IMG/VR virus record: IMGVR_UViG_3300042542_006078
Length of the DNA: 64,000 bases
Direction: 5' to 3' (one strand)
Source of the DNA: a virus
Taxonomy: Duplodnaviria; Caudoviricetes
Below, piece by piece: positions 7,434 through 62,408 of this stretch. How positions within the stretch are numbered: position 1 is the first letter of the stretch; each line of letters begins with the position of its first letter. The translations under genes were made by a program, and so were the position numbers. The notes under the pieces were generated by a model, which saw only the letters and a list, made by a program, of their open reading frames with translations, was not told where the DNA came from and searched no databases.

Positions 7434-7538
7434 GTTTGCCCTCGAATAATAAGAAAAAACATATATACTCCGACAGGCCAATGAGGTAGATTACATCTGG
7501 AAATCCATCGAAAGATGTGGCTCTGTAAGGAGTTTCGC

Positions 7539-8801
7539 ATGGCTAGGAAAAAGGGGCCTTTTTGTGATTATTGCGGTCTTGCTAGTTCTCAAGTTGGTAC
7601 ACTTGTAGAAGGCCCAACAATTGACAAAGAGCAGAATGGCAGACCAGCAGGAAATAAGGTTTACATTTGTGCTGAGTGTATAGATGTTTGCCAGTCGATG
7701 GTTCGCAAAAAGTCTTCAACCAAGTTCAAGCTGGATGATTTGCCAACCCCAAAGCAAATTGTTGAAGAGCTTGATAAATCAATCATTGGTCAAGATAAGG
7801 CCAAGAAATCGCTTGCAGTCGCAATTATCAATCACTACAAGCGTTTGTCCCAAAATGTCGAAGTGACTGATGATGATCCATTTTCGGATGTGACAATTGA
7901 AAAGTCCAACATTCTTTTAATTGGCCCAACAGGAAGCGGCAAAACATCTCTTGCCAGAACAATATCGAAAATGTTGCGTGTTCCATTTGCAATTGGAGAT
8001 GCCACTACTCTCACCGAAGCTGGATATGTGGGAGAAGATGTGGAAAACCTCGTCCTCAAGATATTGAGGGAGGCCGACTTTGATGTCGATTTGGCTCAGA
8101 CTGGAATCATCTTTTTAGACGAAATCGACAAGATTGGGAAGACATCCCACAATGTGAGCATTACTAGGGATGTGAGCGGAGAAGGAGTGCAGCAAGCACT
8201 TTTGAAAATGCTTGAAGGAACAATATGCAATGTGCCACCGGGAGGAGGCAGAAAGCATCCTGAACAACAGTTTGTTCAGGTTGATACCACAAATGTGCTT
8301 TTCGTTTGCGGAGGTGCATTTAATGGTCTTGATGATATTGTTAAACGCAGAATCGGTAAAAAAAGCATGGGATTCAATAGCACTGCCAAAAATGAAAATG
8401 AAGATTGGTTTCTCGAACAAGTCACTCAAGAGGACTTGATTGAATACGGTATGATTCCTGAGCTTGTTGGCAGGCTTCCAATCGTGACTCCTTTGCGGGG
8501 TCTTGATGAAGAAGCTTTATTGAAAATTTTGACTGAACCTAAAGACGCATTGATTAAGCAATATCAAAAAATGTGTTGGCAGGACGATGTTAAGCTCGTA
8601 TTTACGAATGATTCCTTGAGATCCATAGCAAAGAAAGCTATTGATATAGGAACTGGAGCTAGGGGTCTGAGAACAGTCATGGAGGGATTTATGATTGAAA
8701 TTATGTACAATTTGTCCGAACATCAGGGAGAAAAAGTCACTGTGACTAAGGAAGTAGTGGATGGACAACCAGCTAAATTTAGCAAAAATTTGGCAGCATA
8801 G
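7539..8801 (+). CDS. clpX: ATP-dependent Clp protease ATP-binding subunit ClpX
   Basis: C4 Zn finger (CDYCG...CAEC), Walker [21 protein letters not shown], Walker [16 protein letters not shown]; AAGGAG RBS before ATG 7539. Confidence 0.97.
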
Positions 8802-15735: not shown

Positions 15736-16812
15736 TCAATCAAGGTTTGTAATAATACCATCTGTTGCGCCAACAATTGCCTTCAATGTTAATGCGTTTG
15801 TGGTGTCTTTGATAGCTCTAACAGATCCGTCACACATGACTGCATTAGCAACGCCACTGTGGAAACTAAAAGGTTCATCGTTAGGACCACAGTTGTTTAC
15901 GCTCCAAGGACAGCTAGAAGGACCGCCAATTGGTGTTTGATTATTGTTAATTCTAGCCGTTTTATCAGAAGTGCTATTACTCGGACCAGACAAGCCGTTT
16001 CCGCTCGCATCGGGGTCAGCCCACGCATAAACACGACGAGCAGTTGTTAGGCTTAAATCACCAATTACGGGATGACCGGGAGCAGATACAGGTGAACTTC
16101 TTGCAGAACCAGCACCGAACATAGTCATTGTTGGATGCGCTCTACCAGCATCTTCAATTACAAGCAAAGTATTGCTTGTTCCATCTAAAATACTTGTAAT
16201 AGTAGATCCTTGAGCAGTTAAAGGTCCATAATATTTTCCTTTATAGCTAGCAGAACCAGTTCCAGATACTCTTGAATTTGTGCCTTCATCAATATCGCTA
16301 ACACAAGCAACCATATAGTCAATAACACCAAGATTTTCACCATTTGATCGAGCAGTAGATCCAAGTGGTGTAGAAGGACAAACAAATGTCTTTACTTGTG
16401 TTTGAGAGGCAGTCCAACCGCTAGGATAAGCTGGATCATCATAATCTCTTCCTTTTGCCAATGCGTGTAAAAGCGTTGTGTTGTATCCAGTCCAGTTTGT
16501 GTTCGTGTGATCAAACATTTTATATGTTGATTCTTGTTCGATGTAAGGAAGAATTTGCGTACACCAAGAATGAATCATATAAGTAGTAGTATTAGATCCA
16601 GTGCTATCAATTTGACCGGGATGAGGCAACTTGCTATATCCTGATTCAAATGCGTGAAATCCTAGACCAATTTGTTTCAAGTTGTTAGTGCAACTCATGC
16701 GATTAGCTGCTTCACGAACCTTTTGTACTGCTGGGACAAGAAGTCCGATAAGCACAGCAATGATGGCAATAACAACTAACAATTCAATCAATGTAAAACC
16801 CTTGCGCTTCAT
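15736..16812 (-). CDS. DUF1559 / prepilin-type N-terminal cleavage-methylation domain protein (Planctomycete family)
   Basis: KGFTLIELLVVIAIIAVLIGLLVPAVQKVREAANRMSCTNNLKQIGLG; DGTSNTLLVIE; C-terminal FSFHSGVANAVMCDGSV (H-X9-DG); GGAGG RBS. Confidence 0.95.
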   Translation of the reverse strand: MKRKGFTLIELLVVIAIIAVLIGLLVPAVQKVREAANRMSCTNNLKQIGLGFHAFESGYSKLPHPGQIDSTGSNTTTYMIHSWCTQILPYIEQESTYKMFDHTNTNWTGYNTTLLHALAKGRDYDDPAYPSGWTASQTQVKTFVCPSTPLGSTARSNGENLGVIDYMVACVSDIDEGTNSRVSGTGSASYKGKYYGPLTAQGSTITSILDGTSNTLLVIEDAGRAHPTMTMFGAGSARSSPVSAPGHPVIGDLSLTTARRVYAWADPDASGNGLSGPSNSTSDKTARINNNQTPIGGPSSCPWSVNNCGPNDEPFSFHSGVANAVMCDGSVRAIKDTTNALTLKAIVGATDGIITNLD

Positions 16813-20875: not shown

Positions 20876-21886
20876 ATGACGGATTGTTCAAATATGCATG
20901 TTGCTACAATTGAGAAAGTGGTGTCTGTTAGGGAACATCCAAATGCAGACTTGCTACAAATAGCTACTATTTTAGGATGGGATGTGGTTTGTAAAAAACA
21001 AGATTGCCAAAAAGACGAACTTGTTGTTTTTATAAACATTGATAGTGTTGTTGATCCTCATCCATTTTTTCATTTCCTTAAAGCAAAAAGTTATCAAATA
21101 AAACCAATCAAAATCAGAGGACACATCAGTCAGGGACTTATTGTCCCCATAAAAGATTTACAACAATTTGGTTTCACCAAAATACAAGAATTGTCAATTG
21201 GCAGTGATGTTAGCAAAATAGTAGGAGCCAAACACTACGAGAAAATCGAACCATCAAGAACAACAGGAAAATCAAAAGGTCTATTCCCTAGTTTTCTTTT
21301 CAAAACAAATGAAAACAATCTCAGAAATTTTCCATTAGCCATCGAAGAGATAAAAGACAAGGAAGTTTACATAACACAAAAAATAGATGGAACAAGTGCT
21401 ACTTTTTATGTGAAATCTGGTAGGTTCGGAGTTTGTAGCAGGACTCTTGATCTTCAAGAAGATGAAAATCATTACTGGAATATGGTAAAAAAATATGATC
21501 TTGCATTCAAAATGTTGAATTTAGATGACGATATAGCTATTCAAGGAGAAATATATGGGCCAAGCATACAAAACAACTCTTCTGGTATAAAACAAATATC
21601 ATTCGCAGCATTTAATATATTTGATATAAAAAGATTAAATTATGGATCTTTGCAAGAATTGACTGATTTTTGCAGCACAAATGATATACCGCAAGCTAAA
21701 ATAATTTATCGTGGAAAAATGAATTTTGAATTAAAAGATTTAATTAGAATGGCAAGTGAGCAATTTTATGATAATAACAACCCTTGTGAGGGAATCGTAA
21801 TAAGGACTGTTGAGCCAATAAATTCAAAATGTATGGCTCTTAATAGATGGAGTGCCAAAGTTTTGAATGAAAACTACGATATATAG
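20876..21886 (+). CDS. RNA ligase (DRB0094/Rnl5-like family)
   Basis: N-terminal OB-like HPNADLLQIA; motif I TQKIDGTS; IQGEIYG; AFNIF; CEGIVIR; terminal K. Confidence 0.9.
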   Translation: MTDCSNMHVATIEKVVSVREHPNADLLQIATILGWDVVCKKQDCQKDELVVFINIDSVVDPHPFFHFLKAKSYQIKPIKIRGHISQGLIVPIKDLQQFGFTKIQELSIGSDVSKIVGAKHYEKIEPSRTTGKSKGLFPSFLFKTNENNLRNFPLAIEEIKDKEVYITQKIDGTSATFYVKSGRFGVCSRTLDLQEDENHYWNMVKKYDLAFKMLNLDDDIAIQGEIYGPSIQNNSSGIKQISFAAFNIFDIKRLNYGSLQELTDFCSTNDIPQAKIIYRGKMNFELKDLIRMASEQFYDNNNPCEGIVIRTVEPINSKCMALNRWSAKVLNENYDI

Positions 21887-27756: not shown

Positions 27757-28059
27757 CTTGTTTCCCCAAGGCTCTTCTTGTTTCGATTCAATTTAATGTT
27801 TTTATTACCGATAGTCAAGTATTTGATCGAGAATGGTCGATCAAAATAATAAATAGAATTGGCAGCAAAACAATTTTAAGCAAGGAGGCTTATGTTTATT
27901 GTCTTATCTTTGATATCCATGTTTTTTGTTTTCATAGGTTTCTCTTTGATTATCGTGTCACTTTTCATGATATTCAGTCAAGAATATACCGAAGACTGCA
28001 ATAAATTAAATTCTACGCACATCCGCATGATTATAAGGATTTTGAGAAAAAAGTAGAGA

Positions 28060-28317
28060 TTAAAAACTTTGCAAGAATATGGGGGTGTTAGGCCCCATCC
28101 AAGAACCACTAACATTAAATTCAAAAAATTCCTCTGCCTCTTCAAGATTCATTTCACGGCAGAGGATTTCTATACATTTATCTCTGTCGTAGATGGCAAG
28201 TGTTGGTTGGCTTATTCTTCTTCCGATTCCAATTAAAGCTTCATCATATCCATCTGCCAGTAAGGCATCTGGATTTTCATCAATAAGTTGTTCTTTGATT
28301 GCTTCGCATGAACGCAT
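28060..28317 (-). CDS. Small phage-type hypothetical protein
   Basis: ADGYDEALIG...YDRDKCIEIL...AEEFFEFNV; GAGGGA RBS. Confidence 0.7.
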   Translation of the reverse strand: MRSCEAIKEQLIDENPDALLADGYDEALIGIGRRISQPTLAIYDRDKCIEILCREMNLEEAEEFFEFNVSGSWMGPNTPIFLQSF

Positions 28318-28451
28318 CGCATTCCCTCGTGTTGCTCATAATCTCTTTTGGCAATCATAAAGCAAAAAAGGTGAAAATCAATTACAAAAAATAACCGCCA
28401 GAGCAAAATACTCTGGCGGTTCAAGTTTTAATTTCTTTTTAGAAAATAAAA

Positions 28452-29174
28452 TTAGTTGGTTTCATCGGGTACAGTTATGGTATTGATTCTCTTTACCTTG
28501 AAGCCGGGAATAGAGTCATCAATTGTTTCAACAGTCACTTGTCTAGTCCGCACAGGAGGCTTGCTAGATTCAGTTTGTGAATTGCTTTTTGGGCGATTCA
28601 CGATTGCCTTCACCTCAACAACCCCACTCTTGTTGTTGCTCTTGGGGGGCACACGACGACGAACGCTTTCGTAATCATCATCTGCACCTTCATTTGGAGA
28701 AGAAGGTGAGTTTGGAAGTCTGTTCTTGGCGTAAAAAATACGCCACAGGTTAGCCGAATCAGACTTGTGGGCAGGGTTGGAATTAGGATAAGGTCCGAAA
28801 TCAACACGCCTATTAAGTTGCACTACAGCGATATAAGTCAAAGCTTCACGGGCTGCTTGAGAGACGAGAGGATCGGTGTCCTCCAGAAGCATGAAAAGTG
28901 TTTCATCAGGCTTATAAGCCATTCCTGCTGCAAAGGCAGCGGCAACCCTGTGAGTAGTATCTCCAGAAGTAATGGCTGGCATCAGCATGTCCGTATTGCT
29001 ACGGAGATTACGGGCCAATCCAGTTGCGTGAAGCCTCATCTGAGTAATGCTTTCAGGCGTATTAAAATAGCTCGTTCTCGATGGAGAACAATTTCCACTT
29101 TGGCATCCCACCGCTTGACACATTGCATCAAGACCGTTTTGTCCACCCACGAAAAGCAATGTCATTAACAACAT
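28452..29174 (-). CDS. Exported protein with a HEAT-like repeat and low-complexity C-terminus
   Basis: Short hydrophobic N-terminus; LLEDTDPLVSQAAREAL; AAGGAG RBS. Confidence 0.6.
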   Translation of the reverse strand: MLLMTLLFVGGQNGLDAMCQAVGCQSGNCSPSRTSYFNTPESITQMRLHATGLARNLRSNTDMLMPAITSGDTTHRVAAAFAAGMAYKPDETLFMLLEDTDPLVSQAAREALTYIAVVQLNRRVDFGPYPNSNPAHKSDSANLWRIFYAKNRLPNSPSSPNEGADDDYESVRRRVPPKSNNKSGVVEVKAIVNRPKSNSQTESSKPPVRTRQVTVETIDDSIPGFKVKRINTITVPDETN

Positions 29175-29394
29175 TTGTTGAACTCCTTGTTTTATGCCGC
29201 CAATTTTTGACGGAATACTAAAAAACTGTGGCGAATAAATATCGCCACAGTTAAACTAATCTGTTTACTTGTTTTTGTAAAGTGTTGAACTACAAGGGCC
29301 TTTCTTGAAAACTAAACCAAACTTTCTATTTGTTGATATCTTGTGATAGAAAATTAAACATATTTTGTTTTTATTGTCAAGAAAATTATTTAAT

Positions 29395-30960
29395 TCAAGA
29401 CATGCCTAAAAGATTCTTGGCTTTAGCTTTCACTTCTTCGGCTATTTTCTGACCTGCATCGCTTTTAGCAAGTAGATCAACAACTTGGGAAAAGTAAAAA
29501 TAGACTAGAGAAACAAACTTGAATTTACCAGCTATTTCAAGGAAATCTGTGAATCCTGCTCCGTATGCCGTCAGGCCAGCAACTGTAGGACCAAGTATCG
29601 GATTTTTGATTGTGTGCTTTGCCATTCCAAGCATTGTTCCAAGTATCTTATTCAAAGATTCCAATTTCAACTTGTCCCTATCACCAGATCCAATTCCCTT
29701 TATTATTTCGTAAATCGCCAATGCTGCGGCGATTTTCTTACCAGTCAATTCAATCATCTTTGAATAACCAAACAAGAAATCAGCGCCCTTAATTGTTTTG
29801 CTTATTGTTGGATTTTTAGTGGCAAGATCGTAAACATTGGATATTTGAAGGTTTGAAAACATATCTCCAATTACATCATGCAAAGAATCAACATCTGAAA
29901 ACATATGATGAGCAGCATCTGCATAACTATGTTCCATAGCCTTGATTCGAGGCGTTCGCCAATCGCCAGATTGTGTTATCGCAGTTAAGTGGCCAAGGCT
30001 GACCCCTGTTCCAATAGTAGTTGGATCAATTATCCCCATATGTTCTTTTTCCTTGCCTATCATCTTCAATAAGTTTTTCTTAGGTCTGTATGGATTAATT
30101 TTGAACTCTTGATTGTTCACACTAAGAACGATCTCATCGCCACTACCAGACTTAACTATTTTGTTGCCAACAATTTGGCACCAGTCATTCCAAAGAACCT
30201 TTGAAATATCATCGCCATACAAATCTTGCAAAGTATCCAAGAATGCTGCATAGCCTCTCATTCCTACATTGCTGTCTTTTGCGACAACATCAAGAATTGG
30301 GTTTCCTTCTTTGTCCAAAACAACTTTCTTATTTTTTTTCCTCTTTTGCAAAGTAAATCCAGATTTTTTTTCTTTTGCTTTAATGTCTGCTCTTAACATT
30401 GTGTCATATGCTCTGGTATTCACAGAATCGATACAACCGAATTTACCAACTATCAATTGTGTTGCGAAAGCAGCCTTTGTAATTCCCAATCCCTCCACAT
30501 TTTGGTAAATGTACTTCCATATTTCAAATTCAGATGAAGTGCTAAGTGATGTGGTTTCACCTTTCATGAGTCGCATGATATTGCTAAAAATGGAATTTTT
30601 ATTTTTCCACAAATCAGCGATATAGAAAGCTTGATTTGGTCTTTTTTTGTTTGCGCCTATCATGTTTGCATATTTGTGGAAAGGCTGTAATTTATAATTC
30701 CAATTGTCGGTCCTTACTGCATCTTCAAAAATCCATTTCAAGAATTCAGGGAATGTTTGCCTTACAATCTGCCACTCTTTCTGAATTGTATAAAACACGA
30801 AAGCAAACACGATGAACATGTTCGTAGAATTGCTTTTTGCAAATTCATTTATTTTTGGGTTATGCAAGCAAAAACCGCTTACTTCTGAATCTCTTTTTTG
30901 ACCCAAAGTGATTAAAGTATCTTCTTCGGCAATTAGCCAATCTTTGAAATTAATGTTCAT
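29395..30960 (-). CDS. FxxW-leader protein with HhH-GPD glycosylase-like motif
   Basis: MNINFKDWLIAEE; VEGLGITKAAFATQLIVGKFGCIDSVNTR resembles an HhH hairpin plus catalytic Asp. Confidence 0.55.
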   Translation of the reverse strand: MNINFKDWLIAEEDTLITLGQKRDSEVSGFCLHNPKINEFAKSNSTNMFIVFAFVFYTIQKEWQIVRQTFPEFLKWIFEDAVRTDNWNYKLQPFHKYANMIGANKKRPNQAFYIADLWKNKNSIFSNIMRLMKGETTSLSTSSEFEIWKYIYQNVEGLGITKAAFATQLIVGKFGCIDSVNTRAYDTMLRADIKAKEKKSGFTLQKRKKNKKVVLDKEGNPILDVVAKDSNVGMRGYAAFLDTLQDLYGDDISKVLWNDWCQIVGNKIVKSGSGDEIVLSVNNQEFKINPYRPKKNLLKMIGKEKEHMGIIDPTTIGTGVSLGHLTAITQSGDWRTPRIKAMEHSYADAAHHMFSDVDSLHDVIGDMFSNLQISNVYDLATKNPTISKTIKGADFLFGYSKMIELTGKKIAAALAIYEIIKGIGSGDRDKLKLESLNKILGTMLGMAKHTIKNPILGPTVAGLTAYGAGFTDFLEIAGKFKFVSLVYFYFSQVVDLLAKSDAGQKIAEEVKAKAKNLLGMS

Positions 30961-31883
30961 GAAATATTTAGCGATTCTTTTAGAAAATTATGGAAATTTT
31001 CAGGGCAAAACCATTTTTCCCATGTTTGTCTTGCAGCTATTGAAGCTTGTATCAAATTCCTTTTTTCTTTGAATTCATATATTTTCTGAGGTATTGAATC
31101 TATTTCGCTTTCTTTTACTCTTAAAACAAATTCGTCGTAATTAATTTTATGCTCAATCGGCAGTTTTGTTTCATCAGAGATTAAAATAGGAATCCTGCCA
31201 GAAGCGATTGTTTCAAAAAATCTTACAGATGACATGCCAAACCCTTTTGGGCATAGAACGAATTTGCTCATTTGTATCAAGCCGATATAATTTCTTTCTA
31301 TTTCTTCTGTTTCTCTTCCCATAAATTTTTCAAACCAATAGCGTTTATTTATCACGACATTTTTCAAGCCAGAAACAGAATTGGCAGCTTTTTTCCTGAT
31401 TTCATTGCAAAAGTATCCTTGAAAAGAAACATCGTAGTGGGCAAGGTCTATAGAAGAAATTAATTTCGGCACTTCAACAATTGGCTGATAATACAAACAC
31501 TTGTTTTTACTTGATTTGTTTACAGAAAAGGCAAAGACAATTGAATTTTCTAATGTTTTGATTGGTCTTGTTTCATCAGATCCAACAAAAAATATGTGCT
31601 TCTCGGGTTTGTGTTTGAAAAAAGCCAGATTTTCAGACAAGTGATTAAAAAGTTCTTTTTCGTCTTTTAGATGATGTGTGTGGATTATTAAATAAGGCAC
31701 AAGGAAATAATCACATTCAGATGGACTGTAGTTGGGTATTGAACTAATTTTTCCTATGTGGTGATAAGAATTGTTGAGTTTTGGCTTTTTTCCAATGTTT
31801 TTTTCATCAAATGGAGTGCAACACCATTCAGAGTTGTGGGTTCTTTCATTTAGGGATAAGCGATCATAGACATGAAATTTCAT
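30957..31883 (-). CDS. Exostosin family (GT47) glycosyltransferase
   Basis: YDVSFQG, SKFVLCPKGFGMSSVRFFETIASGRIPILISD. Confidence 0.9.
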   Translation of the reverse strand: MKFHVYDRLSLNERTHNSEWCCTPFDEKNIGKKPKLNNSYHHIGKISSIPNYSPSECDYFLVPYLIIHTHHLKDEKELFNHLSENLAFFKHKPEKHIFFVGSDETRPIKTLENSIVFAFSVNKSSKNKCLYYQPIVEVPKLISSIDLAHYDVSFQGYFCNEIRKKAANSVSGLKNVVINKRYWFEKFMGRETEEIERNYIGLIQMSKFVLCPKGFGMSSVRFFETIASGRIPILISDETKLPIEHKINYDEFVLRVKESEIDSIPQKIYEFKEKRNLIQASIAARQTWEKWFCPENFHNFLKESLNIS

Positions 31884-31906
31884 GTCTTATTATAGTATGT
31901 TGACAT

Positions 31907-32063
31907 GCTAGATGACGGCGCAGGCATCGAGGCCGTAATCCTGCCTCGATTGTGTTGGTATGGTCATCTCAGGCAAGGAGCAGCCCTCAACAACGACCAT
32001 CGTGTTAGATACAAGGGCCAATGGACAAAACCCATGATCTCAACCCGCACTCTGTCATCTAGC
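31907..32063 (+). ncRNA. Candidate structured ncRNA, about 157 nt
   Basis: 12-bp closing stem GCUAGAUGACGG/CUGUCAUCUAGC, internal hairpins, TATAGT just upstream, T-run after, no ORF. Confidence 0.5.
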
Positions 32064-32100
32064 TTTTAAGAAGCTACTATGATTTGCTATTGGAATAAAG

Positions 32101-32128
32101 AAAAACCCCTTCATTTCTGAAGGGGTTT
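32101..32128 (-). terminator. Terminator immediately 3' of the tRNA
   Basis: aaaccccttca-gaaa-tgaaggggttttt on the minus strand. Confidence 0.8.
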
Positions 32129-32129
32129 A

Positions 32130-32430
32130 TGGGATCGGTGGGGATTGCACCCACGACCTAAGCGTTATCATACCACTTCGGCTTTCGCCGCCATCTTGCG
32201 ATGTTCGTGGTCTGGACTATGTCACAACCATGCCTTGCGGTTTAGGTCCACCCCCCATAGTCTCTACACACGCCAGACGATTTCTCGTCCGCTTGGCTCG
32301 GCGTTGCCACGGGATTGATCCCAGAGGTTTCACCGAATTCGGGGCGATCCGATAGGCAGTTTCCCAACCTATCGCTCATAAGGTCTGAAGACCATTCAAG
32401 CACTCCGCTCTCCTACTGAGCTACGATCCC
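32130..32430 (-). tRNA. tRNA-Ile(UAU) interrupted by a group I intron after U34; CCA not encoded
   Basis: Exons 32430-32398 and 32168-32130 join into GGGATCG-TA-GCTC..GAGC-G-GAGTG-CTTATAA-CGCTT-AGGTC-GTGGG-TGCAATC-CCCAC-CGATCCC-A, a complete cloverleaf. Confidence 0.9.
32169..32397 (-). ncRNA. Group I self-splicing intron, IC3/Azoarcus-like, 229 nt, no ORF
   Basis: Terminal G; IGS UUAUGAGCG pairs with the 5' exon UGCUU (U.G at the splice site) and the 3' exon AUAA; core AAUUCGGUGAAACC, GGCAACGCCGAGCCAAGC, GUGUAGAGACUAU/CAUAGUCC (P7). Confidence 0.92.
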
Positions 32431-32516
32431 AATAGTCAATCCAGAGCAGATTGAATTGACTACAACCCTATTATTGTTAATTCAAAACAAAAGTCAAGCG
32501 AGATTATATATAAATC

Positions 32517-33242
32517 ATGATGAATTTCAGGGCATATTTTGAAAAAGTCGAATTGACTCTCAAATACCACGATGATTTGAATCCATCTTTTTGGAAGAAT
32601 GGAATTCTTGACTCAGATGTTAGGGATCATTTGCTCGACATAGCTGAATTCTTTCGTGATTATGCTAATATTCCCAAAGATGCGGTCAAGGACATAATCT
32701 TCACTGGAGGCAACGCAAACTACAATTACACCGAGTTTTCCGATGTTGATGTTCATCTGATAATTGACAAGAAAAAGCTCAAGGTTTGCGATCCTGAAAT
32801 CATGGATGATTATCTTAGTGATAAAAAAGCCTTAATAGCTCTTACTCACAATATCAAGATAAAAGGATTTCCTGTTGAGTTGTATGCACAAGATGAGAAA
32901 CAAGCCACATCATCTGACCAAGGAGTATTCAGTTTGAAAGACAATAAATGGATTAAAAAACCAGCCAAGAAACAAATTAATCTAAGAGATCCCTATCTTG
33001 TTAAAAAGATAAAAGATATTGAAAATCAAATTAAAAGATTCATTGACGGTAAATCAAAAGATGTTAAAGAGATGGATGACTATAAAGAAAAATTGAGAAA
33101 AATGCGAGGATCAGCAGTTCAGCATGGAGGAGAATTCAGTTTGGAAAATTTGGCATTCAAAGAATTGAGAAATAGAGGACTTCTTGAGAAGTTTTCTGAC
33201 TATATTAAGGATGTCGAAGACAACAGGCTCACTCTTAAATAA
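32517..33242 (+). CDS. Pol-beta-superfamily nucleotidyltransferase
   Basis: IIFTGGNANYNYTEFSDVDVH (hG[GS]x9-13DxD) and PVELY; N-terminus MMNFRAYFE. Confidence 0.85.
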   Translation: MMNFRAYFEKVELTLKYHDDLNPSFWKNGILDSDVRDHLLDIAEFFRDYANIPKDAVKDIIFTGGNANYNYTEFSDVDVHLIIDKKKLKVCDPEIMDDYLSDKKALIALTHNIKIKGFPVELYAQDEKQATSSDQGVFSLKDNKWIKKPAKKQINLRDPYLVKKIKDIENQIKRFIDGKSKDVKEMDDYKEKLRKMRGSAVQHGGEFSLENLAFKELRNRGLLEKFSDYIKDVEDNRLTLK

Positions 33243-33267
33243 TTTATTTTAATCACATAGAGGTAAA

Positions 33268-33945
33268 ATGTTAACTAATTATCGAGATTGGAGAAGAAAA
33301 TTTAGGGAAGATTTTGCATCTTCTTTCCCCAATTCAAAAAGAAAATGGGTTTCCATAGAAAAGTCCCATATAATCGAAGATCCTGATTTGGCTCAACAAA
33401 TTTTTGATCTTATTGATGATGCCTACAAAGGAATAGGCGGAAATGCCAATATTAGGTCGAAACATGATTTAACTAGCGAGTTTTTGAAGGGCGATCTTTC
33501 AGTAGTGAAGGCTATTGATTTGGATGACGATTCTGATCCAGATGCTGTGATTGGCTATAAGCGCACAGACAAAGGCAATAAGGCTGTTCTTTCGGCAGCT
33601 AAAGGATCGAGCGAAGAAGCTAAAAAATTATTGATTGACAAAAAGAAAGAGGAATTCAATAAAGGTGACGCTTATGGCGAAGTGTCTGGACCTCTTGCTA
33701 AGAAATTAATTGATGCTACAGTTCCTGTGATAGAGGACGAGGAAACTGTTAGGAGCATGTTGCCCGGCAAAAATATCATATGGCACGGTGAACATCCAGA
33801 GCTTGCAACTTTGCCACCTAAAATAGCAGCAACATTTGGCAAGCATAAAGGTTGGTACACTAGGTTGATTGGTGGACACCCTCATACAAAATTGATGATA
33901 GGCTTGAGAAATAAGCCCGGCCAAGTAACTGAAATTGGCGACTGA
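33268..33945 (+). CDS. Phage hypothetical protein with YRDW leader
   Basis: MLTNYRDWRRKFRE; GAGG RBS. Confidence 0.7.
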   Translation: MLTNYRDWRRKFREDFASSFPNSKRKWVSIEKSHIIEDPDLAQQIFDLIDDAYKGIGGNANIRSKHDLTSEFLKGDLSVVKAIDLDDDSDPDAVIGYKRTDKGNKAVLSAAKGSSEEAKKLLIDKKKEEFNKGDAYGEVSGPLAKKLIDATVPVIEDEETVRSMLPGKNIIWHGEHPELATLPPKIAATFGKHKGWYTRLIGGHPHTKLMIGLRNKPGQVTEIGD

Positions 33946-33965
33946 TTACCAATTTTCTAAAATTA

Positions 33966-34817
33966 TCATCGTAAGTCTCCGTAATGTGTGGTCGGAACTG
34001 TAAATTTTGGATCAATGAAATTGTTAGATCTCATGTGTTTTGCGATTTTGTTTTGAACAGCTAAAAGTTGATTGTAAATACTTTGCCTGCTGAATGGCTT
34101 ATTTGTTTTCGTATTTATAAATTGCCTTTGGTATTCTTCGTACCAAAGGCAATCTATTCTTCTGTTTACGAAACAGCGCAACATGCATTCTTCTTTAGGA
34201 CTTAGTTTGCATTTATAAATCAGATTGTTAAGTTCGCTATCAAAGTTATTACCGCATTCAGTTTCGATATGCTTTGAGAAATTATTGAAGTTGAATGTTT
34301 CTGAATCAAAACTTGATTCATAATAAAGATTAAAGTTTTTTCTTCTTTCTTTCTTTAGTTTATTCTTATTGAGTTGCCCTTTGATTCTCATAAAGATTGC
34401 TTTATGGACGAATGTAGTAAATGATGCTTTGATCTTATAAGTGCGATATTGCCATGTGGCAGAACGAATTGCTAGAAATCCATCTGTAACAAATTCATCA
34501 AACTTTTCAAAATCAATTCGCATTTTATGCATGATATTAAAAATCATGGCATGATACTGTTCAGCAAGCAAGTTTTCAATTTGCTGTGCGTAAAACATGT
34601 TTTGAATATCTTTTTTGTACTCGGTTAAGTATCTCGGTTTGATTTTTTCTATTATGGATTCTGGATTCTTGTATATGCTCAGGATGAATTTCATGTAATC
34701 ACGACGAGATATTTTCATTCTTTTGCTCCATTTGAAGCAAAGATCGTTGCTTTTTTTAAGTTTTTCAAAGTCAACTAGTTCTTTGATGTTTTTCCGCATC
34801 CTGCTTACATATTCCAT
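33966..34817 (-). CDS. Divergent sigma-70-like protein
   Basis: DEFVTDGFLAIRSATWQY...ASFTTFVHKAI (region 2-like); LSPKEECMLR...SRQSIYNQL (region 4-like). Confidence 0.7.
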   Translation of the reverse strand: MEYVSRMRKNIKELVDFEKLKKSNDLCFKWSKRMKISRRDYMKFILSIYKNPESIIEKIKPRYLTEYKKDIQNMFYAQQIENLLAEQYHAMIFNIMHKMRIDFEKFDEFVTDGFLAIRSATWQYRTYKIKASFTTFVHKAIFMRIKGQLNKNKLKKERRKNFNLYYESSFDSETFNFNNFSKHIETECGNNFDSELNNLIYKCKLSPKEECMLRCFVNRRIDCLWYEEYQRQFINTKTNKPFSRQSIYNQLLAVQNKIAKHMRSNNFIDPKFTVPTTHYGDLR

Positions 34818-34859
34818 GATATTCCTCGCTCTCTCTCATAGAGTGCAGATTTTGAGTTA

Positions 34860-35309
34860 TCACGCTTCGGATTGGATTAGTTCTTCCAAACCAAAGTGAA
34901 ATGGCCAGTTAGCCCTTGATGATTCTATCTCGTCGATAATTTTTTTCAAGTAATTTCTTTTGGTGGTGTAGTAATCCATACCTCTTTGTATTTGCAATTC
35001 CTTAGGATCTTTGGCTAATCCATAAATCAATGCCCCATGTAATTCAATCATGGTATTTGATGATGAATTAATTCTATGTTCAACATCACCAACTACATGG
35101 TTTTTAATCTGTTCATCCGTCAATTCAGACTGTTGCTTAAATCTTTCGTAGTTCATGCAACGAACAATACTCAAAACTTGAGTTAAATTCAATTCAAGTA
35201 AAATCTTTGTGTCATCGGTTTCTCTTTCAATGAATATTGACTTTTCATCAAAACACTCTTGATAAATATGGTTCTTGCCGTCCCAGAAAATACTCAGTTT
35301 AGTAGACAT
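34860..35309 (-). CDS. Hypothetical protein
   Basis: 149-aa ORF with a GAGGTG RBS. Confidence 0.7.
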   Translation of the reverse strand: MSTKLSIFWDGKNHIYQECFDEKSIFIERETDDTKILLELNLTQVLSIVRCMNYERFKQQSELTDEQIKNHVVGDVEHRINSSSNTMIELHGALIYGLAKDPKELQIQRGMDYYTTKRNYLKKIIDEIESSRANWPFHFGLEELIQSEA

Positions 35310-35358
35310 AAATCACCTCAACAATCAGTCCGCCACAATGAGACGGATTTGTTTTTAA

Positions 35359-35793
35359 TTATACATCACTTTTCATGTTCTCTTTAATGCTTTTCACCTT
35401 GGAAAGCAAAGAAATAATTTTATCAATTTTCTCCTCGTTGAGAATGATGTCTCCAAAACCGTCATTTGAGTTGTGATGATTAAAAACATACTTGATTGCA
35501 TGCCAAATCCTCATCCAGATAGATTGATCTGGATTGAAGTTGATATGGAAAGATACATCGACATCAACGATTTTATCGTTTTTTTTCCACTCAAACAATT
35601 CAATGATTGCTATGTGACCGGGGCTTCCACATTCACATGTCAGGAATTCTTGGGTCGAATCACTCATGCTCATTTTTTTGATCCTTCTAATAGAGTTGAC
35701 GGGTTTCCAAGGCATTGTAAATTCATACTTCGCAATGGAATTTGGGTAAAACCTTTTATTTTTGAGGAAAAACTGGGTATTCTGGAAAGACAA
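35359..35793 (-). CDS. Hypothetical protein (true start probably internal, MSDSTQEFLTCECG)
   Basis: CECGSPGH motif and RIWHAIKYVF. Confidence 0.55.
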   Translation of the reverse strand: MSFQNTQFFLKNKRFYPNSIAKYEFTMPWKPVNSIRRIKKMSMSDSTQEFLTCECGSPGHIAIIELFEWKKNDKIVDVDVSFHINFNPDQSIWMRIWHAIKYVFNHHNSNDGFGDIILNEEKIDKIISLLSKVKSIKENMKSDV

Positions 35794-35836
35794 GATGAGT
35801 CATGGTGGCTCTTATAGATGGCTATAAAATTATAGC

Positions 35837-36172
35837 GTGGAGATTGAAATGAATAATGCTGTTAATGATGATAAGGAACACATGGAATTGTTTATCAGTA
35901 GAGTCAAAAGGATAGTCAAGATGGTGAAGCTTAATGCGCCACGCATTTTAATTTCCGGCGATATTCAGCAGGTTTACTCGATGATTCCATCGATTTTGAA
36001 AGAAATAAGCGAAGAAAATCATGTTGATAAAAATAAAATAGCATTCAATGTCGCTTGTCAGAAAAACAAACTAAGGATTTGCGCCAAAGAAGAATGCGTC
36101 AATGAAATTGCACATCTGGAAAAAAATAAAATTGGCATCCAGTTGTGTTATATTTGTCAAAGCAAAAAATAA
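35837..36172 (+). CDS. Hypothetical protein with C-terminal Cys pairs
   Basis: CAKEEC...CYIC. Confidence 0.55.
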   Translation: MEIEMNNAVNDDKEHMELFISRVKRIVKMVKLNAPRILISGDIQQVYSMIPSILKEISEENHVDKNKIAFNVACQKNKLRICAKEECVNEIAHLEKNKIGIQLCYICQSKK

Positions 36173-36247
36173 GCAAAAAATCTATCTTTGCTTGTGAATA
36201 ATTCTCTCCACATTCCTAAATAATTAGAAATGTGGAGAGATTTTTTT

Positions 36248-37300
36248 ATGAATAAGTTCAAAAGCTGGTTGTTAGATCGTGACACTAATCTTCTGGAAAC
36301 CATGTCCAGAGAAAAAATGATGGAAGATGATCTTGATGCCTTGAATTATGCAAAAAAGCAAAAAAGACAAGAAAAAGAACTTGATGAAAAAATTCGTATA
36401 ATTAAGTATCTTGCTAAAATTAAGAAAAAAATAGAACAATTCGTTGACGCACACGACAAAGGCGCTCAAGCTCTTAAGCTGATAGCAGCATCTTTGTTGA
36501 CTCACGAAAAGGGCAGAGAAGGCATTAAAACCCATGTTCGTCATGTTTATAGCAAGGATTTGAAAAGCCTCAAAGACTTGCAGAAGATTTTCACTCATGA
36601 AAACTTGATCAAGCTTTTCCACGATGTTGATGCTCTCCACTCTTTGAGCATGATATTGGATTCCGATTTTGAAAGTCATGTCGGCAATTTGGAAAAAGAT
36701 TCTCAACACGGTCATATTGATCATTCACATGGCGAGTTGGGCAAAAAATTTGCAAGTTTTGTTGTGAGCCATATCAAGCATGCTGCTGACGATGTTTTAG
36801 CATCATTCCTTCAAGATCATAATAAAGATGAAGGTCAAGACGACGATGTTCCTCAAGATCAGGAATCTGGCGATGAAGCCGTTCCAGATATGTCTGCTGA
36901 TGAAATGAATCCTGATATGGAAGTAGGCGGTTCAGCACAAGATGCAGGTCAAATGGGTCAGGATGCAGGTCAAATGGGCCAAGATGCAGGTCAAATGGGT
37001 CAGGATGCAGGTCAAATGGGTCAAGATGCAGGTCAAATGGGCCAAGATGCAGGCCAAATGGGTCAGGATGCAGGCCAAATGGGCCAAGATGCAGGCCAAA
37101 TGGGCCAAGATGCAGGCCAAATGGATCAGGATGCAGGCCAAATGGATCAGGATGGATCTTCAGAAGACAATGCTTTGATGCCACCTGTTGGTATGGCCGC
37201 TCCTCAAAGACCTGCTGGCGCAGAAGGTGCAGAAGGTGCAGAAGGTGCAGAAGGTGCAGAAGAAGATGAAACGCAAACAGCAGCAGCACCATCTGTGTAA
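36248..37300 (+). CDS. FxxW-leader protein with acidic low-complexity repeat tail
   Basis: MNKFKSWLLDRD after a GGAG RBS; (QDAGQM[G/D])x10 and (AEG)x4. Confidence 0.8.
   Translation: MNKFKSWLLDRDTNLLETMSREKMMEDDLDALNYAKKQKRQEKELDEKIRIIKYLAKIKKKIEQFVDAHDKGAQALKLIAASLLTHEKGREGIKTHVRHVYSKDLKSLKDLQKIFTHENLIKLFHDVDALHSLSMILDSDFESHVGNLEKDSQHGHIDHSHGELGKKFASFVVSHIKHAADDVLASFLQDHNKDEGQDDDVPQDQESGDEAVPDMSADEMNPDMEVGGSAQDAGQMGQDAGQMGQDAGQMGQDAGQMGQDAGQMGQDAGQMGQDAGQMGQDAGQMGQDAGQMDQDAGQMDQDGSSEDNALMPPVGMAAPQRPAGAEGAEGAEGAEGAEEDETQTAAAPSV
36938..37147 (+). repeat. 21-bp tandem repeat x10 (QDAGQMG)
   Basis: ca[a/g]gatgcagg[t/c]caaatgg[g/a][t/c]. Confidence 0.95.
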
Positions 37301-60740: not shown

Positions 60741-62408
60741 CTAACTATAAGAATATTCACTACTTCTTCTCGCTTGCAAATAATCAACTATATCCTTATG
60801 ACCATTTTGTTCTGCACCAGCAATTGCATAATTATAATTACTTATTTCTGCGCCTTTGAATAAAAGATATTTAACAAGATTCAAATTACCAGCCGATGCT
60901 GCATTAGCAACTGCGTTTTTACCTATTTCTATTGGAAATTTATTTATTTCTTCGGCTTTATCAATAAGATCTTTAACAAAATCTAAATCACCAGTTGCCG
61001 ATGCAGAAGAAATTAATTTTTCGCTAATTGGGACACCTTTTTTTACAAGATATCTAACAAGATCAAAATTTTTATCTCTTGTTGCTACAAGGACTGCGTC
61101 ATGGCTAACTGGGGCACCTTTTTCTACAAGATATCTAACAATATCAAAATTTTTATCTTTTCCCGACCTCACTGTTTGCCATATTGCTACAAGGACTGCG
61201 TTTTCGCTAATTTTAGCACCACTTTCTACAAAATGCTTAACAGTATCAAAATCATTAAATTCAATTGCCATGTTTATTTTGTTATAATCTTCACTATCAT
61301 TTATTTTCTCATAATAGCTTTCTTTCTGTTTAGAACTCAATAAATAATATTCTTTAGCAGTTAAATTTCTACTATTCTGATCAGAAATTAATCTATTATG
61401 AATATAATTGTCCTTCAAATCACGAATTTTTGCTATTTTATCAATTTGATAATCATCTAATGGCAACCCAGTTTTAACATATTGAGTCAGCAGAGAATTA
61501 AACTTGTTATCCAATAAAAAATCAAATTGCTGATTAGTCAATGGATGCCCTCTTCCAATATATTTTGACTTATAATCAGGAGACAAAGAAATAAACCAAT
61601 TCAAATCACCTTTAGCTTCTCCTAATTTTTCATCTTCTTCTTTTTCTTCTGGCGACTTGGGAATATTTACAATTTTTGATAAATCAATACCCTTCTCCTT
61701 AAGATATTTCATATAAGACTTAGGATCAGTAGTCAATTCTCCAGTATATGGATCTAATGTTTTGCCAGTCGTATTGACCTTGTCTGTGAGAACAGTTTTA
61801 TATTGTGTTTGATCAACAACCACAATACCCAATCTGTCATCCCTCGTATCATCATACACAAAATAAAAGGTGCTAGTCTGATTGTCACGATAACTTTGCC
61901 ACATTCTGTTTCCGGGTTGACTTATGCAAAAACTCTGACCTTTTCCAAGTATAATACATTGTTCTGTATTGTTAGCTTTATAAACCCTTATCTTGCCACC
62001 TGAGCCAGTCAAAATTGGCTTCTCATTCTGGAAATCAATATCGCTAGGCTTAAAATTAGATTTTTCCTTATTTGATTCTTCTCCTTTATTTCCATGAATA
62101 ATCTGAGTCCAATAAAGATAATTATCCCAAGGACTAGGTGGTTTTTTAGAAACTAAATCCACAGATATCATTTTCATCTTGTCTCTGTTCAAATAACCAA
62201 TATAATCCTTTATATCGATTTTAATTTGATTCAAATCTTTAGTTTTACTGTAATAATATGCTGCTAGCAATAATAACTTATCTGCATTTTTATTGTTTTG
62301 TGGAATAACTGTGGATAAAGCATTCAAAACAGCACCAGCCAACTCTGATGCCAAAGCCTTCTCTTCTTTGGTTTCATTTATCAATAACCATTCACGAAAG
62401 TTTAACAT
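60741..62408 (-). CDS. FxxW-leader phage protein with C-terminal ankyrin repeats
   Basis: MLNFREWLLINE; repeats such as NFDIVRYLVEKGA, NLNLVKYLLFKGA and GHKDIVDYL. Confidence 0.88.
   Translation of the reverse strand: MLNFREWLLINETKEEKALASELAGAVLNALSTVIPQNNKNADKLLLLAAYYYSKTKDLNQIKIDIKDYIGYLNRDKMKMISVDLVSKKPPSPWDNYLYWTQIIHGNKGEESNKEKSNFKPSDIDFQNEKPILTGSGGKIRVYKANNTEQCIILGKGQSFCISQPGNRMWQSYRDNQTSTFYFVYDDTRDDRLGIVVVDQTQYKTVLTDKVNTTGKTLDPYTGELTTDPKSYMKYLKEKGIDLSKIVNIPKSPEEKEEDEKLGEAKGDLNWFISLSPDYKSKYIGRGHPLTNQQFDFLLDNKFNSLLTQYVKTGLPLDDYQIDKIAKIRDLKDNYIHNRLISDQNSRNLTAKEYYLLSSKQKESYYEKINDSEDYNKINMAIEFNDFDTVKHFVESGAKISENAVLVAIWQTVRSGKDKNFDIVRYLVEKGAPVSHDAVLVATRDKNFDLVRYLVKKGVPISEKLISSASATGDLDFVKDLIDKAEEINKFPIEIGKNAVANAASAGNLNLVKYLLFKGAEISNYNYAIAGAEQNGHKDIVDYLQARRSSEYSYS

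Follow-up and report, generated by a model that had tools for sequence, protein, structure and literature searches.

Group I introns in the anticodon loops of tRNA genes are a classic of bacterial and plastid biology. In cellular and plastid tRNA-Leu(UAA) genes, an IC3 intron is inserted between U34 and A35 of a CUU|A... loop, depends on pairing with its exons through a P1 of CUU/GAG with a U.G pair at the splice site, and ends in omega-G. The Azoarcus intron, which is bacterial, 205 nt long and has a GAAA-capped P2, follows position 36 of a lysidine-requiring CAU anticodon in an AUA-decoding tRNA-Ile. The cellular tRNA-Ile(UAU) of Mycoplasma mobile, which has no intron and was studied by Taniguchi and colleagues in 2013, reportedly reads AUA independently of TilS, with UAU replacing the lysidine-modified CAU.

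A survey of bacterial and archaeal assemblies, which did not extend to phages, increased the count of bacterial tRNA settings interrupted by introns from 4 to 21 (Williams 2020, bioRxiv 10.1101/2020.01.27.920355), and in the part of that work available to us the seed alignment names 22 settings, in Leu, Arg, fMet, Met, Thr, Ile2, Lys, Ser, Tyr, Asp, Asn and Phe tRNAs at various positions. The statement that bacterial tRNA introns are of four types, made in a preliminary description of the locus reported here, is outdated on that count. In phage genomes, self-splicing group I introns are known from T4 td, nrdB and sunY, from Twort and from the Bastillevirinae, where they lie in protein genes, belong mostly to IA subgroups and are often accompanied by homing endonucleases (PMC3984707, PMC11878797). 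According to a 2014 review, every phage intron on record at that time lay in a protein gene, even though phages have many tRNA genes (PMC3984707); tRNA genes are not treated in a 2025 survey of Bastillevirinae introns (PMC11878797), and a phage group I intron outside protein genes was not described in the open-access literature that we searched.

The locus analyzed here supports the conclusion that a group I intron splits a phage tRNA-Ile(UAU) gene after the wobble base U34. The mechanism is textbook; what is new is the Ile(UAU) tRNA, the phage setting and an environmental RNA trace of circularisation. The gene lies in a 64,000-nt stretch of the viral record IMGVR_UViG_3300042542_006078 (hereafter the window), and has the following parts:

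32398-32430, (-) strand: 5' exon, 33 nt, with the acceptor strand, D arm, anticodon-stem 5' strand and C32 U33 U34, ending ...GAGUGCUU
32169-32397, (-) strand: intron, 229 nt, ORF-less, IC3 group I, starting GAAUGG and ending GGUAUG
32130-32168, (-) strand: 3' exon, 39 nt, with A35 U36 A37 A38, the anticodon-stem 3' strand, variable loop, T arm and acceptor strand
32142-32148, (-) strand: T loop UGCAAUC, with G at position 55
32381-32373, (-) strand: internal guide sequence (IGS) UUAU-GAGCG, of which GAGCG is 32377-32373

The 3' exon begins AUAACGCUU and ends at the discriminator A, so that CCA is not encoded. When the exons are joined, the resulting 72-nt RNA is a tRNA-Ile(tat) cloverleaf with a 7-nt anticodon loop containing UAU (ARAGORN). 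The preliminary description, which was made from the letters alone, had placed the split tRNA-Ile(UAU) and its 229-nt ORF-less intron exactly to the base, and its atypical T loop and missing CCA are likewise as claimed. It had also predicted that standard tRNA finders would overlook the gene, and indeed ARAGORN finds 0 tRNAs in the 64-kb window, whether in default or in intron mode (introns <=400 nt), and Rfam gives no match at gathering thresholds and none at E<=0.1 across the 64 kb. Since standard finders miss intron-split tRNAs, the tRNA inventories of large phages are undercounted, and the missed tRNAs read A/U-rich codons that are important for arguments about codon usage and host prediction.

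The junction is fixed by pairing of the IGS with both exons. In P1, GAGCG pairs with UGCUU of the 5' exon, placing a U34.G wobble at the 5' splice site, and in P10, UUAU forms 4 bp with the AUAA of the 3' exon; the last intron base, at 32169, is G (omega-G). Thus the pairing with both exons and the CUU/AUAA junction proposed earlier were confirmed. Alternative 5' sites (after U33 or after the +1 G) and other 3' G residues were rejected, as they break P1/P10 or the 7-nt anticodon loop. The preliminary description had named another anticodon, such as GAU, as an outcome that would speak against it. We enumerated ~412,000 artificial splices across 36 loci, with T before the 5' site and G before the 3' site. 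When all 5' sites after T were combined with all 3' sites after G in the window, the sole tRNA-yielding splice was Ile(tat) (ARAGORN).

The helices of the intron were mapped by helix-by-helix comparison with a homologue (L011, below) together with RNAalifold covariation:

32372-32352, (-) strand: P2, with a GAAA loop
32346-32341 / 32254-32249, (-) strand: P3
32337-32331 / 32303-32297, (-) strand: P4
32327-32307, (-) strand: P5
32296-32272, (-) strand: P6
32264-32258 / 32219-32214, (-) strand: P7
32248-32226, (-) strand: P8
32211-32172, (-) strand: P9, two hairpins

Judged by its sequence, the intron belongs with the IC3 group I ribozymes of the bacterial tRNA type and resembles that of Azoarcus. 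The whole precursor folds with z = -3.3 relative to shuffles. A check against the Rfam group I model, suggested in the preliminary description, came out in part: a local scan of 701 nt with RF00028 gave an alignment to the full model at 22.7 bits (E=0.0017), and the gathering score of 50 was not reached. The Rfam seed is without bacterial introns, and cut-offs of 18-20 bits were used for tRNA introns, according to the available part of Williams 2020 (bioRxiv 10.1101/2020.01.27.920355). No homing-endonuclease-sized ORF was found in the insert, and there are no further copies of the intron core motifs within the window.

The intron resembles its cellular counterparts in a number of respects. With the Leu(UAA) intron it shares the U34/A35 insertion point, the IC3 class, the dependence on exon pairing, the CUU/GAG core of P1 with its U.G pair and the terminal omega-G; it differs in residing in Ile(UAU), in a phage rather than a cellular or plastid genome, and in its P9, a two-hairpin 'ACCACGAA ... 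GCGGCGAAAGCCGAAGUGG' arrangement as in some of the proteobacterial tRNA introns in the available part of the Williams 2020 seed. With the Azoarcus intron it has in common the core strands AAUUCGG(C/U)GAAACC, AAUUCGGUGAAACC, GGCAACGCCGAGCCAAG, GUAGAGACUA and AUAGUCCAG, the last four of which also occur in other bacterial tRNA introns of that seed as far as available, as well as the GAAA-capped P2, the interruption of a tRNA for AUA and, putatively, the formation of 5'-truncated circles by omega-G attack. However, it follows position 34 of UAU rather than position 36 of CAU, is 229 nt long, and is found in a phage. Ile(UAU) interrupted after position 34 is absent from the 22 settings named in the available seed alignment of Williams 2020, yet it fits naturally into the 3Ug series described there (Lys.3Ug, Thr.3Ug, Arg.3Ug and Ser.3Ug), in which the intron follows U34 and the loops start with CUU as they do here, so that the same short P1 (CUU/GAG) serves. 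Being small and ORF-less, and with natural covarying relatives, the intron could serve as a model alongside the Azoarcus ribozyme.

The same Ile(UAU) arrangement was found in three more lake-metagenome loci. L011 is a 59.9-kb IMG/VR contig with a 231-nt intron. L226 and L227, both metagenome contigs, have introns of 261 and 258 nt, and their tRNA body differs (acceptor CCUCCGA). When spliced, all three are also Ile(tat) according to ARAGORN. Three other sequences (L012, L225 and G001) belong to the window's own phage. Neither the junction CUU|AUAA nor the T-loop letters UGCAA vary across the four loci. P1 pairing is retained, as GAGCA in L011 and as the shorter CUU/GAG in L226 and L227, and P10 keeps 4 bp in L011, including a G.U, and is weaker in the other two. 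The four introns form one clade with a support of 1.00 in a quick tree of 14; the intron lineage has thus remained with tRNA-Ile(UAU) through the divergence of the tRNA body. No gene neighbours are conserved between the window and L011, L226 or L227.

Substitutions between the window and L011, and among the four loci, are concentrated in loops or compensated in the stems of ribozyme and tRNA. Relative to L011 (79% identity), 9 of the 91 hand-assigned pairs have changed in both partners and still pair, and 8 have changed in one partner, with the compensations spread over P1ext, P2, P3, P4, P6a, P8, P9a and P9b. From the four-way alignment of the pre-tRNAs, RNAalifold predicted the acceptor, D, anticodon and T stems together with P2-P9, and 35 of the 88 pairs are compensatory, including 7/7 acceptor pairs as well as pairs in the T stem and P2-P9; all four cloverleaf stems covary. 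In an alignment of 12 members of the wider phage family, compensatory pairs number 31 of 46. P3, for example, covaries between CGCCCC/GGGGUG and CAUCCC/GGGAUG, and the P7 strands GACUA/UAGUC are invariant, as are those of P4 in the catalytic core.

Wider searches returned little beyond these loci. Megablast of positions 28000-37000 against phage records gave no match, and the only blastn match to the locus was 105 nt of the P7-P9 region of an intron in the huge phage LR756511. A scan with a T-arm 15-mer returned 75 loci, mostly chance matches or other tRNAs, with the same gene found only in the window's contig and L011, and a scan with a junction 16-mer returned at least 117, of which, among the matches listed, almost all are chance matches in coding sequence. 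Two matches to the junction pattern, in Muribaculaceae and Akkermansia MAGs, from a scan of genome contigs, are without tRNA or intron and were set aside as chance; no bacterial copy of the gene was found with the junction pattern in these contigs. We also note a 1411-nt contig in DNA run X5, at ~5x the phage depth, that matches the window only in the P9 region (32171-32220) and with gaps; its depth points to a related intron in that lake sample, carried by an organism more abundant than the phage.

Evidence at the RNA level came from public sequencing runs. At least 90% of the sampled words of an 801-nt stretch around the locus are contained in 18 lake or freshwater DNA runs, and two metatranscriptome runs, from two studies, contain part of the stretch only. 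We aligned contigs from the runs to positions 31800-32800 of the window. In RNA run X19, a 287-nt contig spans 32150-32436 only, corresponding to the gene before splicing and to none of its surroundings; in the DNA runs, both flanks are covered as well. In RNA run X20, a 190-nt contig with a depth of 3 covers 32169-32343, from intron nt 55 to omega-G, followed by 15 letters that are not those of the 3' exon. Fourteen of the 15 match 32374-32387, a stretch found nowhere else in the window, so that in the RNA sense ...GAAGUGGUAUG, ending in omega-G, is directly joined to CAGACCUUAUGAGC, which is intron nt 11-24:

32387, (-) strand: intron nt 11 (C), the putative circularisation site, joined to omega-G in the X20 contig and lying just after GGUCUU

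The bond attacked would thus follow GGUCUU, which resembles the exon end UGCUU and is able to pair with the same guide. Circles truncated at the 5' end through attack by omega-G are a known post-splicing fate of group I introns, including that of Azoarcus (PMC13168695), where the site is near nt 2-3 as opposed to after nt 10 here. The junction, seen in one depth-3 contig, indicates a 5'-truncated circular intron and hence ribozyme activity in nature, and it is hard to explain without ribozyme chemistry. Template switching by reverse transcriptase was also considered as its source and is unlikely, there being no microhomology between donor and acceptor and the joint falling exactly at omega-G. 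Because the contig breaks exactly there, the 3' splice site is fixed. We saw neither a ligated-exon contig nor cover of the flanking genes in the two RNA runs, in which contigs cannot show absence; that the exons are ligated, and where the intron is cut at its 5' end, is inferred. Metatranscriptome libraries seldom capture mature tRNAs. Circle junctions of this kind would allow the ribozyme activity of an uncultured phage to be read from public RNA data.

The gene is flanked by its own candidate transcription signals, and its leader contains a hairpin:

32470-32497, (-) strand: sigma-70-like promoter candidate, TTGACT-16 nt-AATAAT, from a consensus scan
32433-32462, (-) strand: 5' leader hairpin, 8-bp stem TAGTCAAT/ATTGACTA, with the loop motif CTGCTCT at 32449-32443
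32103-32128, (-) strand: intrinsic terminator, 11-bp stem and U run, starting 2 nt past the discriminator

L011 has a similar TTGACT / (A/T)AATAT pair, equally far upstream, and comparable terminators follow the tRNA in L226 and L227. The leader hairpin is present in all four Ile(UAU) loci, its arms differing yet remaining complementary and its loop, TGCTCT, being conserved. This loop could pair with 8 nt of the tRNA (nt 20-27, at 32411-32404), from the 3' strand of the D stem to the start of the anticodon stem, and this complementarity is again found in 4/4 loci, with one position covarying (G-C in the window vs A-U in L226/L227). A match of 8 nt is reached by ~3-6% of shuffles per sequence, and a comparable leader match was seen in none of 16 other intron-bearing phage tRNAs that we checked. 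One can envisage the pre-tRNA as a regulated folding device, in which pairing of the UGCUCU loop with the tRNA body would keep the D and anticodon arms open, P1 and the ribozyme would fold first, and 5' processing would come after splicing. Combined with the G55 T loop, such a device would set apart a class of phage tRNAs that mature and are recognised differently from host tRNAs, perhaps escaping tRNA-targeting defences; we regard this as an unlikely scenario.

The window has ~35% GC and uses the standard genetic code. The codon AUA occurs 20.3 times per 1000 codons and makes up 27% of Ile codons, in line with the AT-rich phage anticipated in the preliminary description. AGA is the commonest Arg codon of the phage, and a tRNA-Arg(UCU) that reads AGA (Rfam tRNA, 54.9 bits) is encoded ~8.4 kb before the window start, at 34676-34749 of G001 (L230:1500-1575), suggesting that the phage supplies readers for its own A/U-rich codons, AUA and AGA. 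We note that the T loop of this tRNA-Arg, UUUGAAU, is itself atypical, with U at position 56. The matching 80-kb contig has an IMG/VR completeness of 18%. Several of the proteins encoded in the window can be named:

7515-8801, (+) strand: ClpX-like ATPase
15736-16812, (-) strand: DUF1559 (SBP_bac_10) protein bearing a pilin-type N-terminal methylation motif of prokaryotes
20876-21886, (+) strand: Rnl-type RNA ligase, OB domain
30957-31883, (-) strand: GT47 exostosin-like glycosyltransferase, adjoining the tRNA
32517-33242, (+) strand: phrog_36119 protein, divergent from the tRNA and ~50% identical to T4-like cyanophage proteins
60741-62408, (-) strand: ankyrin-repeat protein

A sigma-70-region-2 protein, an SNF2 helicase, sugar-modifying enzymes and strong PHROG/cyanophage matches are found as well. 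A giant eukaryotic virus, which the ankyrin and GT47 genes might bring to mind, was rejected on account of the sigma-70 region 2, the PHROG phage and cyanophage matches and the prokaryotic N-methylation pilin motif. One T4-like cyanophage relative of the phrog_36119 protein is annotated as a nucleotidyltransferase; the gene is not conserved beside the tRNA in the Ile(UAU) homologues. The sole clue to the host in the window is the DUF1559 protein, whose nearest Atlas clusters are mostly from Planctomycetota and whose gene may, from these sequence matches, be host-derived. Planctomycetota are generally GC-rich. The GC-rich host supposed in the preliminary description is consistent with this gene and thereby only hinted at, well short of proof.

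The tRNA itself is unusual. Position 55 is U (pseudouridine) in nearly all tRNAs. The four Ile(UAU) loci all have a T loop of the form UGCAA(U/G)(C/U), with G55, which does not match the canonical T54-Psi55-C56-R57-A58; in L226 and L227 the D loop is also without GG (canonical G18 G19). The window's tRNA has in addition two G.U pairs in the anticodon stem, which is unusual, and with these and G55 neither folding nor charging is guaranteed. E. coli IleRS recognises A35, U36, A37, A38, A73, U12-A23, C29-G41 and C4-G69 as identity elements. The first six of these are present in 4/4 loci, position 29-41 is G-C and not C-G, and at 4-69 the window's tRNA has A-U and those of L226/L227 have C-G. Among 261 viral tRNAs, the nearest are uninterrupted Ile(tat) genes, and L100 and L102 are examples of phage loci in which a tRNA-Ile(UAU) gene has closely similar D and T arms and no intron. 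The preliminary description had called UAU rare, which does not hold among phage-encoded tRNA-Ile: ARAGORN found 11 tat vs 4 gat in ~1.9 Mb of viral loci, a biased sample. Unmodified U34 could misread AUG.

T loops of the UGC(A/G)A type recur in phage tRNAs of many identities (L007, L044, L058, L076, L093, L100-L102 and others). In loci not selected for the motif, G55-type T loops occur in 5 of 81 tRNAs with a scorable T arm, and in contigs selected by one such tRNA they account for 78/172. By sequence, some phages seem to carry whole sets of G55 tRNAs, of which we found no description in the literature.

Taken as a whole, the locus is very probably a working tRNA-Ile(UAU) gene of a huge freshwater phage, with an IC3 ribozyme between U34 and A35, that would supply the reading of AUA. 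The central claim of the preliminary description, a group I intron after the wobble U34 that must splice itself out, is supported by P1/P10 and omega-G, by the IC3 covariation, by the three homologues and by the RNA circle junction. In the scheme that we favor, the tRNA unit would be transcribed alone, from the sigma-70-like promoter to the intrinsic terminator, and the intron would fold with P1 as UGCUU/GAGCG, the U.G pair lying at the splice site, and P10 as UUAU/AUAA. Two guanosine-dependent transesterifications would then generate the anticodon loop CUUAUAA, and the excised intron would circularise by attack of omega-G after nt 10. After trimming of the leader and addition of CCA by host or phage enzymes, the mature tRNA, presumably charged with isoleucine, would read AUA without lysidine (TilS) and so supplement a codon used heavily by the 35%-GC phage, as tRNA-Arg(UCU) would likewise do for AGA. 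The intron is most simply seen as a tolerated selfish element that now has no homing endonuclease and stays splicing-competent because the tRNA is needed.

It could be argued that the intron is more than a passenger, in that it gates or delays maturation of the tRNA or, as the preliminary description suggested, hides the precursor from anticodon nucleases, with the leader hairpin perhaps joining in the control. Its persistence in the same tRNA in four diverged lineages in the absence of a homing endonuclease would fit such a role, as would the leader hairpin, which is specific to the four Ile(UAU) loci and has a loop complementary to the stretch where the D and anticodon arms meet; the Rnl-type RNA ligase in the window shows only that the phage invests in RNA repair. 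However, retention is equally expected of a neutral intron that is forced to splice by a needed tRNA, phages with an uninterrupted tRNA-Ile(UAU) of very similar D/T arms exist, and the leader complementarity is just 8 nt, of a kind that shuffled sequences also reach, so that we consider such a role for the intron improbable.

A different question is whether the spliced RNA, though tRNA-shaped, might not be an AUA-reading isoleucine tRNA at all and serve another synthetase or a use outside translation. The non-canonical elbow (G55 in all four loci and the D loops lacking GG in L226/L227) and the E. coli IleRS elements that are missing (C29-G41) or confined to L226/L227 (C4-G69) point in this direction, yet A35, U36, A37, A38 and A73 do not vary among the four loci, the ARAGORN assignment is to Ile, the viral tRNAs most like it come from uninterrupted Ile(tat) genes, and AUA is abundant in the phage, which together make this very unlikely. 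It is even harder to credit that the gene is decaying, with inefficient splicing and a tRNA that is a non-functional relic. The atypical T loop, the missing CCA, the low Rfam score and the unspliced X19 contig could all be read in that way, but the substitutions among homologues fall in loops or are compensated in stems, the core strands of P7 and P4 are invariant, the circle junction in X20 implies cleavage at omega-G, and the G55 T loop, being common to many other phage tRNAs, is no private defect.

A conserved 18-mer from the P7/P9 junction was found in 34 IMG/VR contigs. Once the exons were mapped, the same intron family was recognised in phage tRNA genes of three kinds: Leu(UAA), split after position 33 or 34, Lys(UUU), and those with a CAU anticodon, split after 33 or 36. 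From sequence comparison, it possibly also interrupts phage genes for Asn(GUU) and Thr(UGU). The tRNA-borne copies, all in IMG/VR, are:

L004, L005, L007, L010, L013, L015, L016, L018-L021, L023-L025, L031 and L036: tRNA-borne loci of the family

The locus and ~20 related viral contigs thus represent one IC3 family in phage Ile(UAU), Leu(UAA), Lys(UUU), CAU-anticodon and probably other tRNAs. Several family copies are 430-574 nt long and may hold ORFs, and L022, L029, L030 and L032 look, by their sequences, like copies in protein genes. Among the matches listed, ~20 IMG/VR loci between L110 and L224 contain a recurrent ...CUGAGAAAAAUCAGAAGUGGUA(C/U)G followed by AUAACAAAAUCGUUACUGAUAUAGCACUAGUAUAAC; the former looks like the P9 end of a group I intron with its omega-G, and the exon that follows it is not a canonical tRNA half. 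In the 595-kb uncultured phage LR756511.1 (L002, 408617-409919), the 3' part of a related intron lies at ~300-770 of the locus and is followed by the 3' half of a class II tRNA starting AAAAUCC, which fits Leu(UAA) split after U34. The record is unannotated, and the intron contains an HNH endonuclease ORF.
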